From an uncultured bacterium (GTDB lineage: Bacteria > Patescibacteriota > Saccharimonadia > Saccharimonadales > Saccharimonadaceae), in NCBI GenBank assembly GCA_964293235.1, contig CAXYYW010000001.1, positions 1 to 27,101 on the forward strand: 27,101 nt of DNA, read 5' to 3'. Below, one piece after another: positions 6,045-15,776 of the stretch. Position numbers and translations under genes: made by a program. The notes beneath the pieces are model-generated. The model searched no databases, was not told where the DNA came from, and worked only from the letters and a program-made list of their open reading frames with translations. Within the stretch, counting starts at the first letter, position 1; each line of letters begins with the position of its first letter.

Positions 6045-6079
6045 GATATATAACCATTTATGAGATATAATAGTCTTTG

Positions 6080-7171
6080 ATGAAAGACGTTATCTTGACT
6101 GGCATTCGTGCCAACAATGACCTGCATATCGGCAACTATTTTGGGGCAATGCTGCCTATCATAGACATGGCGAAGAGTAAGGCTGACGAGTATCAGGTCA
6201 ATATGTTTATACCTGACTTGCACAGCTTCACGACACCTGTTGAGTATGGCAAACCGCTTCACGATGCCATACTGAACAACGCGCGCGTTTTTGCCGCTGC
6301 TGGCCTGCCGTTCGATAACGATAACATAAACCTCTACCGTCAGAGTTACATACCCGCTCATAGTGAAATGACATGGATTCTTGATTGCTTCACTGGTTTC
6401 GGTGAGATGAGCAGAATGACGCAGTTTAAAGATAAATCAAAAACTTTCACGGAACATATGGGAGCAGAGGAGTACAACCCCTCGCGCGAGGTAGATATAA
6501 CAGGCCTACAAAGGCAATTCGTTTCAGTCGGTCTCTTTAACTATCCTATCCTTATGGCCGCAGATATCTTACTCTACGGGGCGAAATACGTGCCGGTAGG
6601 GGAAGACCAGACGCAGCACCTTGAGTTTACACGCGATATCGCAGAGCGCATGAACAGCAAGTTTGGTGAGCTTTTCGTCGTACCTGAGCCGGTCAAGAAG
6701 CAGCACGAATTTTTCGGCAAAGATCAGGGCCTCCGTATAAAAGACTTGCTCGACCCGAGCAAAAAGATGAGCAAGAGCGACGACACTGGCGCGGGTGTTA
6801 TATTCCTGAGCGACAGCCCTGAAGATGCAAAGAAAAAGATTATGCGCGCGACAACTGACAGTGAGGCGCATGTCCGTTATGACAAGGAAAAGCAGCCGGG
6901 TATAGCAAACCTCATAGACATACTCGCACTCCTACGCGGCGCAAAACCGGGTGATGTGGCGGCTCAGTACGAAGGTATGGAGAGATACGGTGAGTTCAAA
7001 GGCATTGTCGCGGACGAAATGGCGAAATTCCTCGAAGAGTTCCAAAAGAACCTCGCTGCAGTTGACGATACCGCTGTTCTCGCAAAGCTTGAGAAATCAG
7101 AAACGGCTATGAACGCTCAAGCAAACGAAACACTGCTCCGCGTCCAAAAAGCCGTTGGCCTCCGCGCATGA
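6080..7171 (+). CDS. trpS: Tryptophanyl-tRNA synthetase
   Basis: TGIRAN..HIGNY (HIGH), MTQFKDK, YPILMAADILLY, VPVGEDQTQH, KMSKS. Confidence 0.98.
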   Translation: MKDVILTGIRANNDLHIGNYFGAMLPIIDMAKSKADEYQVNMFIPDLHSFTTPVEYGKPLHDAILNNARVFAAAGLPFDNDNINLYRQSYIPAHSEMTWILDCFTGFGEMSRMTQFKDKSKTFTEHMGAEEYNPSREVDITGLQRQFVSVGLFNYPILMAADILLYGAKYVPVGEDQTQHLEFTRDIAERMNSKFGELFVVPEPVKKQHEFFGKDQGLRIKDLLDPSKKMSKSDDTGAGVIFLSDSPEDAKKKIMRATTDSEAHVRYDKEKQPGIANLIDILALLRGAKPGDVAAQYEGMERYGEFKGIVADEMAKFLEEFQKNLAAVDDTAVLAKLEKSETAMNAQANETLLRVQKAVGLRA

Positions 7172-8845: not shown

Positions 8846-9502
8846 ATGTTAGGTCTCTTAGTTATTGCAGCATTCGGTGTTTGGGCGCTTTTGTACCAAA
8901 GGCCGCTCGATGAAGTCGGCAACGAGTTGCCGTCGAAAATGTCCGAACGTATGGATAGGCTCTGGGGTATTGCTTCGGAAAGCATCAAAGACCGCAAGTA
9001 TCTTCGGGCAGAAAAAGCACTTCTGACCATATTGCGCGTCGATGAACGCAACGCAACAGCCTACAACCGCCTCGGCATCCTCTATGCGAAGCAACGGGCG
9101 TATCAAGACGCTATAGAATGTTTTGAAATTGCCCAGAGCCTTGAGCCAAGCGCATCAAGTCTGCATAATGTCGGACTTATCTACTACGAAACAGGGGTGT
9201 ACGACAAAGCAGCACTCGCGTTTGAGCAGGCTCTTGAAATGGAAAGTGGGCTGGCGGCGCGTCACATAGCCTACGCAAAGGTTCAGGAAAAGCTTGGCGA
9301 CAACAAAAAAATGATTGCGAGTCTTGAGCGCGCAGTCGAACTAGAGCCAAATCCGCAGAGCCTTGGAATCCTGGCAGACGCGTACGAAAGATCAGGGCAA
9401 GATGAGCTTGCTGGTCAACTGAGGACGAAGGCCCAAAAGATGATTATCCCCGCCGGCGCCCCAAAACGCATCGTCCAGCCGCCACGCAGAATCGTCATGT
9501 AA
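8846..9502 (+). CDS. Membrane-anchored tetratricopeptide repeat protein
   Basis: N-terminal TM helix followed by TPR consensus units (AYNRLGILY, SLHNVGLIYY..A..AFEQAL). Confidence 0.85.
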   Translation: MLGLLVIAAFGVWALLYQRPLDEVGNELPSKMSERMDRLWGIASESIKDRKYLRAEKALLTILRVDERNATAYNRLGILYAKQRAYQDAIECFEIAQSLEPSASSLHNVGLIYYETGVYDKAALAFEQALEMESGLAARHIAYAKVQEKLGDNKKMIASLERAVELEPNPQSLGILADAYERSGQDELAGQLRTKAQKMIIPAGAPKRIVQPPRRIVM

Positions 9503-9514
9503 GCAATAACCGTG

Positions 9515-9548
9515 AAAAGAAAAGAGCCCTTAAAGGGCTATTTTCTTT
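9515..9548. terminator. Bidirectional intrinsic terminator
   Basis: AAAAGAAAAGAGCCCT-TAA-AGGGCTATTTTCTTT between the convergent TPR gene and tRNA-Tyr; U-tracts on both strands. Confidence 0.85.
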
Positions 9549-9633
9549 GGTGCTGGGAGTAGGATTCGAACCTACGAAGGCGAAAGCCATTAGATTTACA
9601 GTCTAACGTGTTTGACCGCTTCACTATCCCAGC
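9548..9633 (-). tRNA. tRNA-Tyr(GUA)
   Basis: GCTGGGA/TCCCAGC acceptor stem, TTAGA-CTGTAAA-TCTAA anticodon arm, long variable arm, GGTTCGAATCC T-arm, encoded CCA; uninterrupted. Confidence 0.97.
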
Positions 9634-9648
9634 TTGTCGGAGCATCGT

Positions 9649-10026
9649 CTATTTTACCTCATATCTGGCGAACTTTCCAGCCTCGATATTAATCGAATTT
9701 CGATTCTCAAGCAGCGTCCATGGTATAAGAAACTTTCTGTTATTGCCCGTATATATGAATAACAAATCAAAATCGCCATCAGAATACTTTTTTGCAGTGT
9801 AATACGACCGATTGCCACCCATCGTCCTCAAAGCTGCCTTGTATCTCTTTTCCTTAGTATAGAAGCCAGCGTACTTGACTTGAACTCTATGTAACATGCC
9901 ATCTAGTTCAACGACTAGATCATACGGTTTTTTATCTCCTATTGGCAAACACACCTCGTATCCATTAGACATAAAATACGCGATTGCATTTGCTGCGGCG
10001 ATATCGCCTTTTTCTTTAGGTTTCAT
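9649..10026 (-). CDS. Free-standing PD-(D/E)XK endonuclease-family protein (group I intron-associated / I-Ssp6803I-like)
   Basis: KGDIA...GYEVCLPIGDKKPYDLVVELDGMLHRVQVKY...YSDGDFDLLFIY matches the PDDEXK_5-type layout (D8, D36, Q49, K51). Confidence 0.85.
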   Translation of the reverse strand: MKPKEKGDIAAANAIAYFMSNGYEVCLPIGDKKPYDLVVELDGMLHRVQVKYAGFYTKEKRYKAALRTMGGNRSYYTAKKYSDGDFDLLFIYTGNNRKFLIPWTLLENRNSINIEAGKFARYEVK

Positions 10027-10075
10027 ACAACTATAATAGCAGAGTATATTGCTGTTATCGAAGCAAAAAATAAAA

Positions 10076-10152
10076 TGGAGCCGCTTCTCGGGATCGAACC
10101 GAGGACCTACGGTTTACAAAACCGTCGCTCTGACCATCTGAGCTAAAGCGGC
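10076..10152 (-). tRNA. tRNA-Thr(UGU)
   Basis: GCCGCTT/AAGCGGC acceptor stem, ACGGT-TTTGTAA-ACCGT anticodon arm, GGTTCGATCC T-arm, encoded CCA; uninterrupted. Confidence 0.97.
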
Positions 10153-10170
10153 AGACTCAAGTGCTGTAGT

Positions 10171-10208
10171 ATTGTATCAAAATCGCCTCTGATATGCCAG
10201 TGGCATAT
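10171..10208. promoter_or_regulatory. tRNA-Thr promoter plus overlapping 17-bp palindrome
   Basis: Minus-strand extended -10 TGATACAAT (10179-10171). ATATGCCA-G-TGGCATAT at 10192-10208 covers the expected -35 region. Confidence 0.55.
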
Positions 10209-10251
10209 AGTTCTTGACAGCACTTTCATTATTTCATGTTATGATTACTTC

Positions 10252-10524
10252 ATGAAAGGTAAGAAGCTCTTTGTTGGAACAGGTATATTCCTGCTTGTCA
10301 TTGCGGCCATACTGTTAATCTTTGGGTTTATAGCCATATCTTCGCTACTCGGATTCGTCATATTTCTGTGTGGCATATTCGTATTCCTTATCGGTATAGA
10401 GCTCGTTATCCATCCAAATCTCGAGGATTTTCTACAAGTTATATTTGGCATCATCAACTTCTTTTCGTTCGGGCCCTGGGTAGACCCGCCATCTCCAGCG
10501 AAGAAAAAAGACGATAAAGATTAG
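10252..10524 (+). CDS. Small membrane protein (90 aa)
   Basis: Two to three hydrophobic helices and a basic C-terminal tail; TGtTATGAT lies 6 nt upstream of the ATG. Confidence 0.7.
   Translation: MKGKKLFVGTGIFLLVIAAILLIFGFIAISSLLGFVIFLCGIFVFLIGIELVIHPNLEDFLQVIFGIINFFSFGPWVDPPSPAKKKDDKD

Positions 10525-14555: not shown

Positions 14556-15776
<1,221 letters not shown>

Follow-up and report, generated by a model that had tools for sequence, protein, structure and literature searches.

The stretch analysed here (the window) comprises positions 1 to 27,101 of contig CAXYYW010000001.1 (assembly GCA_964293235.1) and comes from an uncultured bacterium of the Saccharimonadaceae. Between its genes for tRNA-Thr(UGU) and tRNA-Tyr(GUA) lies a 442-nucleotide (nt) insert that carries a gene for a PD-(D/E)XK nuclease of 125 amino acids (aa). 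This insert is probably a free-standing, intron-less and self-regulated homing endonuclease element, which, to judge from ~100 related loci that were compared, would target a tRNA anticodon arm and reside in a resistant allele of that tRNA gene. The alternatives that were weighed were a domesticated DNA-binding protein, an ancient resident devoid of present mobility and a defence nuclease.

The nuclease gene was the only long open reading frame (ORF) between the two tRNA genes, its ATG being placed 49 nt after the 3′ end of tRNA-Thr and its stop codon 15 nt before the 5′ end of tRNA-Tyr. ARAGORN, Rfam and the ORF coordinates agreed on this layout, which had been proposed in a reading of the window made from its sequence alone (the sequence-only reading). 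The features are listed below in window coordinates and in their order along the minus strand, on which all of them lie.

10171..10200, minus strand: promoter-like site CTGGCA-18-TACAAT with a TG, before tRNA-Thr (promoter scan)
10076..10152, minus strand: tRNA-Thr(UGU), CCA encoded (ARAGORN; Rfam, 70 bits)
10065..10075, minus strand: T-run TTTTATTTTTT right behind the CCA of tRNA-Thr, a possible terminator tail; left end of the 442-nt insert
10056..10061, minus strand: TCGATA, −35 box in front of the nuclease gene (consensus over the loci TTGAnA)
10039..10055, minus strand: 17-bp 5-7-5 pseudo-palindrome ACAGC-AATATAC-TCTGC, filling the promoter spacer exactly; proposed operator and anticodon-arm mimic
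10033..10038, minus strand: −10 box TATTAT, preceded by TG (extended −10), 6 nt 5′ of the ATG
9649..10026, minus strand: gene of the 125-aa PD-(D/E)XK nuclease, PDDEXK_5 / I-Ssp6803I family (Pfam, PDB 2OST, AF2)
9651..9679, minus strand: candidate internal promoter of tRNA-Tyr, TGGAAA-17-TAAAAT, over the last codons GTA AAA TAG
9634..9648, minus strand: 15-nt spacer from the stop codon to the 5′ end of tRNA-Tyr
9548..9633, minus strand: tRNA-Tyr(GUA), the sole tRNA-Tyr gene found in the assembly (ARAGORN, Rfam)
9590..9606, minus strand: anticodon arm of tRNA-Tyr, TTAGA-CTGTAAA-TCTAA, a proposed resistant variant of ACAGA-CTGTAAA-TCTGT
9515..9539, minus strand: intrinsic terminator after tRNA-Tyr, a 6-bp GC-rich hairpin with a T-run

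The protein matched PF11645 (PDDEXK_5) with 84.8 bits (cut-off 26.1, E=7e-24); no other domain was found in it by Pfam, and hence no GIY-YIG catalytic domain. It also matched the sequence of I-Ssp6803I (PDB 2OST) at E=4e-10, and the best PDB structure match of its AF2 model (pLDDT 87.8) was 2OST_A (TM score 0.84, 132 columns aligned, E=2e-10). The core D36...Q49-x-K51 was aligned identically to 2OST and was invariant in the 57 clade members compared (57/57); D31, which the window protein has, was conserved as well. Among 150 representatives of the whole family, the D was found in 149, the Q in 129 and the K in 142.

The homologs were overwhelmingly linked to tRNA genes, as emerged from the survey that the sequence-only reading had recommended. 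A total of 63 loci from species-representative genomes, all of them Patescibacteria, were collected, and 59 of these were informative, four being cut by contig ends. A tRNA-Tyr(GUA) gene on the same strand followed the ORF directly in 55/63 loci (55/59 informative, with four true exceptions), and this linkage was seen in Saccharibacteria, Berkelbacteria, Parcubacteria and Microgenomates. Since it recurred in 55 of 63 independent loci, the arrangement was far beyond chance. On the upstream side, 21 loci had tRNA-Thr(UGU) in the same orientation and three had it on the opposite strand, six had tRNA-Thr(GGU), and ~33 had no tRNA. Of the two alternatives in the sequence-only reading, the selfish, free-standing element comparable to SegB of phage T4 was the better supported, but its anchor proved to be the 5′ flank of tRNA-Tyr and not the Thr-Tyr spacer that had first been supposed. 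Five or six of the 63 copies (~8%) were pseudogenes at the same site.

The stop codon was placed 0–30 nt 5′ of tRNA-Tyr, or, in ~12 loci, 6–10 nt inside it. In these overlapping loci (L035, L036, L037, L039, L043, L054, L063, L075, L078 and others) the TAG stop coincided with U8-A9-G10 of the tRNA, and in L051, L060, L082 and L083 the ORF read still further into the tRNA-Tyr gene; cleavage by RNase P at the tRNA 5′ end would give a stop-less mRNA from such genes.

Empty alleles were found as well. The sequence-only reading had proposed a search for relatives with an empty Thr-Tyr spacer, and such spacers were present in seven genomes of the same genus and on one metagenome contig. No homologs were found in the eight same-genus genomes, and the spacers of the seven measured 3–67 nt. 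These empty alleles had one promoter ahead of Thr, with a TAnAAT box 10–20 nt before tRNA-Thr in every one, and one terminator behind Tyr; a terminator equivalent to that of the window stood behind tRNA-Tyr in all the same-genus loci. In run X4, a DNA metagenome, a contig joined position 9633 to 10076 and skipped exactly the 442-nt insert (9634–10075), the depths being 30 for this empty-allele contig and 3.6 for the occupied one. Four letters of its tRNA-Tyr differed from the window, and two of these changes (T>A at 9590, T>C at 9591) restored TCTGT. By RpoA, the same-genus genomes were the closest to the window's genome, G000 (81–93% identity, G001 being the nearest with 93%), whereas those whose nucleases were most alike (65–78%) were more distant (RpoA 69–74%). 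The clade was carried by 16 (~4%), G000 included, of 401 genomes sampled evenly across the order, and these carriers belonged to many families.

A relic of the element was also sought in the empty spacers. The 67-nt spacer of G001 (L009) resembled the −35 box and operator only at p ~0.09 and the others did not align, so that this candidate was rejected. The 21-nt spacer of G008 (L007) begins with TGCTATACT, the extended −10 of the nuclease promoter. The spacers of G001 and G008 may be footprints of lost elements.

A promoter module preceded the ORF in ~50 of 62 loci and in all host clades. It consisted of TTGAnA, a 17-nt spacer with the pattern AACAGCAnTATACTCTG, TGyTATAAT, 6–7 nt and the ATG; in the window it occupies 10061..10033, with TCGATA 17 nt upstream of TATTAT, and forms a promoter of the sigma-70 type. 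The −10 box that had been pointed out in the sequence-only reading is present, and it was conserved over the modules of the relatives. Of 62 upstream regions, 40 contained the pattern CAG-N9-CTG, where shuffled sequences led one to expect 0.25. No consensus pairs were obtained when 50 upstream-module sequences were analysed with RNAalifold; a conserved RNA structure was rejected on this result, and the module was read as a DNA element. As the ATG lies where transcription should start, the mRNA is probably leaderless. The reversed palindrome CTG-N9-CAG was found in L041, L060 and L073 and has the shape of the anticodon arm of tRNA-Thr(UGU), CTGT-TTTGTAA-ACAG; two of these, L041 and L073, belong to the four exceptions that lack tRNA-Tyr after the ORF, and they adjoin tRNA-Thr genes.

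The spacer palindrome pointed to the putative target of the nuclease. The target of I-Ssp6803I is the anticodon stem-loop of tRNA-fMet, a 5-7-5 pseudo-palindrome (PMC2175346, Table 1) of 17 bp (PMC3424549). The palindrome in the promoter spacer has the same 5-7-5 form as an anticodon stem-loop, and its arms, ACAGc/TCTGy, matched the tRNA-Tyr arm ACAGA/TCTGT of four same-genus empty alleles, G001 included. The arm of the tRNA-Tyr in the window, TTAGA/TCTAA, differs from ACAGA/TCTGT by two compensated pair changes. The proposed operator is thus similar in sequence to the anticodon arm of non-carrier alleles and not to that of the resident tRNA-Tyr. When each operator was compared by local alignment with the tRNA-Tyr of its own locus, the likeness was at chance level (p<=0.05 in 3.6% of loci), and an apparent resemblance to the 5′ end of the tRNA in L078 and L036 was dropped, alignment to the own tRNA being at chance.

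The presumed target was missing from the carriers. The 17-mer of the Tyr clade, ACAGACTGTAAATCTGT, was found in 77/385 non-carrier genomes (20%), but in 0/16 carrier genomes and 0/55 carrier loci; without G372, G374 and G384, which are flagged as unpublished, the tally was 74/382 non-carriers and the outcome was unchanged. A sister PDDEXK_5 clade with ~36% identity was used for a second comparison. Its loci (L088–L107, L114–L116 and L004, from other genomes of the order or phylum) adjoined tRNA-Ser(UGA) in 19/20 cases, mostly divergently and with 60–90 nt between the starts; the gene often sits between tRNA-Ser(GCU) and tRNA-Ser(UGA), and its upstream palindrome is ACGGT-N7-ACCGT. The corresponding arm of tRNA-Ser(UGA), CGGT-CTTGAAA-ACCG, was present in 181/379 other genomes (48%), G000 included, and in 0/22 carriers, 19 of which were verified as tRNA-Ser-linked (0.52^22 ~ 6e-7). 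The exclusion of G295, G340 and G374, again flagged as unpublished, gave 178/376 and the same outcome. G062, in which the homolog is not linked to tRNA-Ser, keeps the Ser target site.

Further observations were made in the sister clade and beyond it. L115 and L116 of the Ser clade have a variant palindrome, CAGT-N7-ACTG, which equals the tRNA-Ser arm ACAGT..ACTGT of seven genomes that host the CGGT-type enzyme; these variant operators may reflect a switch of specificity or an arms race. The arm of the tRNA-Thr in the window (10115–10131, minus strand) is ACGGT-TTTGTAA-ACCGT, with arms equal to those of the Ser-clade palindrome, and the tRNA-Thr arms of same-genus relatives are ACTGT/ACAGT or GCTGT/ACAGC. 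A homolog of 133 aa in L110 (G747:C102), with Glu11 kept, ends 0 nt before tRNA-Thr(UGU) and may represent a third tRNA-specific clade.

The free-standing state of the window element was established by Rfam and by comparison with intron-borne relatives. Over 9300–10400 no group I intron was found, RF00028 giving no match even at E<=1, and both tRNAs were intact; an intron at this locus was therefore ruled out. L108 (1501–2118) and L109 (1501–2099), which served as positive controls for this search, hold canonical family members of 149 aa with an RF00028 match after each gene and, ahead of it, what appears to be the 5′ half of a tRNA-fMet gene, interrupted within its anticodon loop. The intron was detected in both, so that intron-borne and free-standing forms coexist in the phylum. 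A flanking att-like duplication was not found, the two short repeats of 11–12 nt that were met being at chance level, and an integrase or att-type island was dropped as a candidate. The statements of the sequence-only reading on the lack of an intron and of an att duplication, and on the AT-richness of the gene (GC 0.39–0.43 over 9500–10400 against 0.50–0.58 in the flanks), held.

Taken as a homing endonuclease, the element would work as follows. A multimeric enzyme, like I-Ssp6803I, would recognise and cut the 17-bp anticodon stem-loop sequence of tRNA-Tyr, ACAGA-CTGTAAA-TCTGT; the break, ~40 bp from the insertion point, would be repaired from the occupied allele, and the element would thereby be copied into the 5′ flank of tRNA-Tyr. 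In occupied alleles, compensated changes in the anticodon stem (here TTAGA..TCTAA) would remove both half-sites. The promoter spacer would act as a decoy of the target, with the same arms and another centre, through which the protein would repress its own synthesis, as does I-TevI. The sole tRNA-Tyr would be made from the element's promoter with the help of RNase P, or from a second promoter over the last codons. The lineage is old in Patescibacteria, and its persistence would rest on vertical inheritance combined with some exchange among related genomes, with decay and with loss.

The two ways of making tRNA-Tyr were each suggested by the loci. In eight related loci a hairpin with a T-run, typical of a terminator, stood between tRNA-Thr and the module, and tRNA-Tyr must there be transcribed from inside the element. 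On the other hand, the claim that no separate tRNA-Tyr promoter fits was unsafe, since TGGAAA-17-TAAAAT overlaps the last codons of the ORF, where synonymous codons were unusually fixed. The string gaggtaaaat (gagataaaat in L026) stood at the ORF end in every close relative compared at this junction, and codons 123 and 125 were single-codon in all 10 sequences, synonymous sites being otherwise saturated. A start site of tRNA-Tyr inside the ORF, at 9679..9651, may therefore exist.

A wider proposal is made more tentatively. Patescibacteria may host a whole family of intron-less nucleases of the I-Ssp6803I type, each at the 5′ flank of the tRNA whose anticodon stem-loop it would cut and each with a 17-bp decoy in its promoter, with Tyr(GUA), Ser(UGA) and possibly Thr(UGU) clades; an arms race with compensated stem changes might then shape the evolution of these tRNAs. 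With the decoy placed in the nuclease's own promoter spacer, its specificity would be readable from the genome.

Several points weigh against the homing interpretation. The depletion statistics ignore kinship, no phylogenetic correction being applied; the target was deduced from a motif found by eye, and both search patterns were picked after the carrier loci had been seen. The Tyr depletion test is weak when taken alone (0.8^16 = 0.03). The runs labelled RNA-Seq in which the locus occurs probably represent DNA, and transcripts cannot be read from contigs. With regard to mobility, the ORFs of L052 and L055 were as diverged as their flanks, and the nuclease identity to the nearest sampled relatives (65–78% aa) was about that of RpoA (69–74%), with saturated synonymous divergence (dS), so that much of the nuclease history looks vertical. 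A clear recent exchange was found only once, between L066 and L069: the ORF was 93–97% identical, tRNA-Tyr identical and the promoter region ~83%, within flanks of ~77% identity (68–88% over the 2.4 kb upstream). These two loci cease to be homologous precisely where tRNA-Tyr has its 3′ end, at a boundary of a rearrangement or island.

A recent transfer into G000 was unsupported, for dS was saturated against all the sampled relatives and the nuclease identity was close to that of RpoA. The nuclease tree was not used for a comparison with taxonomy, the protein being too short (6/54 branches starred) and the labels of metagenome-assembled genomes unreliable. Saturation of the synonymous sites indicates an old element, which recent invasion alone would not explain, while the L066/L069 tract, the pseudogenes and the clean empty sites together fit the cycle of gain, decay and loss of homing endonuclease genes. 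Both mobility and vertical inheritance are thus seen in the sequences as parts of the element's history.

The alternative that survives best, though unlikely, is a domesticated DNA-binding protein: a former homing endonuclease that cuts no longer and serves at the palindrome of its own promoter as a repressor or roadblock, tuning itself and the sole tRNA-Tyr. The strong purifying selection (non-synonymous divergence, dN, 0.17–0.26 with saturated dS against the nearest sampled relatives) would suit such a role, as would a divergence similar to that of RpoA and the conservation of a palindrome that precisely fills the promoter spacer. Matching arms would be selected against in carriers by a pure binder too, since its binding would block transcription of the tRNA. 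Nevertheless, a gene of this kind would not be expected in only ~4% of the sampled genomes of the order, to be missing from the eight closest relatives, or to be a pseudogene in ~8% of its copies; the exchange tract of L066/L069 speaks against it too, and the fixed spot at the 5′ flank of a tRNA in unrelated contexts is what homing predicts.

The catalytic residues bear on this alternative in both directions. The Glu11 of the intron-borne forms (L108, L109) is gone, position 11 being Ala in the window protein and V/I/A/L/T over the clade, and 17/22 members of the sister Ser clade have Arg in place of the motif Lys51. The Ala counts against an active homing enzyme, but this is mitigated by the pattern at position 31. 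Glu11 was absent in 128/150 family representatives, of which 125 have D/E31, whereas among the 22 that do have Glu11 there are 13 with no acid at position 31 (Fisher p=1e-10). The absence of Glu11 is hence a rule of the family, compensated by D/E31, and with D31 present in the window protein its loss should not be evidence of inactivity. D36, Q49 and K51, invariant throughout the clade, need not be kept by a mere binder.

The next alternative is rather improbable. It states that an early ancestor of the Patescibacteria acquired the element in its tRNA-Tyr leader and that the element has since been inherited vertically and repeatedly lost, is no longer mobile and is kept mainly as the promoter of the only tRNA-Tyr. 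The nuclease clades roughly track the tRNA-Tyr types of their hosts, dS is saturated and the L052/L055 pair shows an ORF diverged as much as its flanks; moreover, tRNA-Tyr is a single gene, terminators set off the element and tRNA-Tyr as one transcription unit in the eight loci mentioned, and the weak likeness of the G001 spacer to the module would be a relic of loss. However, dozens of clean independent losses leaving spacers of 3–21 nt would be needed, and this alternative explains neither the purifying selection on catalytic residues, nor the depletion of operator-like arms in carriers, nor the L066/L069 tract.

Finally, a defence nuclease that cuts incoming phage or plasmid DNA with a matching tRNA anticodon arm, the host tRNA being protected by its stem changes, is very improbable, for although PD-(D/E)XK is a restriction-enzyme fold and carriers avoid the presumed site, there was no methylase or partner gene, defence does not require a fixed place beside the cognate tRNA gene, the prototype of the family is an enzyme of homing, and no phage link was seen, though PADLOC was not searched.

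The homing endonuclease reading can be set beside known systems. To our knowledge, I-Ssp6803I is almost alone among homing endonucleases in being of the PD-(D/E)XK type, and a tRNA intron is its only known setting; a family member would be expected to form a tetramer and to cut a long pseudo-palindromic site, for which the 17-bp palindromes of the loci give indirect support. The enzyme of the Synechocystis tRNA-fMet group I intron shares with the window protein the family, the fold, the YD...QVK core and the small size, and its target, a tRNA anticodon stem-loop, is of the type proposed here. It differs in that the gene in the window is located in the 5′ flank of a tRNA and not in an intron, the tRNA is Tyr and not fMet, Glu11 is replaced, and a promoter containing a palindrome similar to the target belongs to the element itself. 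I-TevI reportedly binds an operator that is similar to its homing site and overlaps its own promoter, and so represses itself, as Edgell et al. are said to have described in 2004. By analogy it may serve as a model for the promoter palindrome, although it is a GIY-YIG enzyme, intron-borne and from phage T4.

The closest functional analogue is T4 SegB, which is likewise free-standing among tRNA genes; it recognises a conserved motif of tRNA genes, and its homing co-carries the neighbouring tRNA region (PMC2330249). SegB differs in its GIY-YIG fold, its phage origin and its T-psi-C motif, and no operator mimic has been described for it. LAGLIDADG homing endonucleases in rRNA introns of bacteria of the Candidate Phyla Radiation (CPR) are site-specific, patchy and partly spread horizontally (PMC11270868). 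They share the host group and the spread of homing endonuclease genes into stable-RNA genes, but they are intron-borne, have another fold and concern rRNA, and neither tRNA nor PD-(D/E)XK enzymes are mentioned in that paper. Full-text literature searches found no description of tRNA-flanking PD-(D/E)XK endonucleases in CPR bacteria.

With regard to the genomic context, the assembly, obtained from wastewater or sludge, comprises 861 kb in 181 contigs and is ~90% complete; within the Patescibacteria it is placed in the Saccharibacteria lineage. It contains one PF11645 gene and, by ARAGORN over the whole assembly, 34 tRNAs, one of them Tyr. Beyond tRNA-Thr, a 90-aa ORF with hydrophobic stretches (10252–10524, plus strand) lies in the same low-GC stretch (0.38–0.44) and gave no match in Pfam. 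Two genes within 5 kb of the tRNA-Tyr locus are related to tRNA, that of a class I Trp/Tyr-type aminoacyl-tRNA synthetase (6077–7171, plus strand) and that of a queuine tRNA-ribosyltransferase (TGT; 14583–15776, plus strand). The substrates of TGT are tRNAs with GUN anticodons, Tyr included; the proximity of both genes is probably a coincidence.

The locus shows that the I-Ssp6803I family also exists free of introns, beside and not inside its presumed target tRNA gene, in many bacteria with ultra-small genomes. If the reading of the promoter palindrome as a decoy operator is true, the targets of dozens of very small (125 aa), natural and sequence-specific nucleases could be read from their promoters, which would aid the discovery of enzymes. 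It would also account for part of the puzzling variation of anticodon stems among close relatives, and this may then be a minimal genome in which a selfish element controls how an essential single-copy tRNA gene is transcribed.

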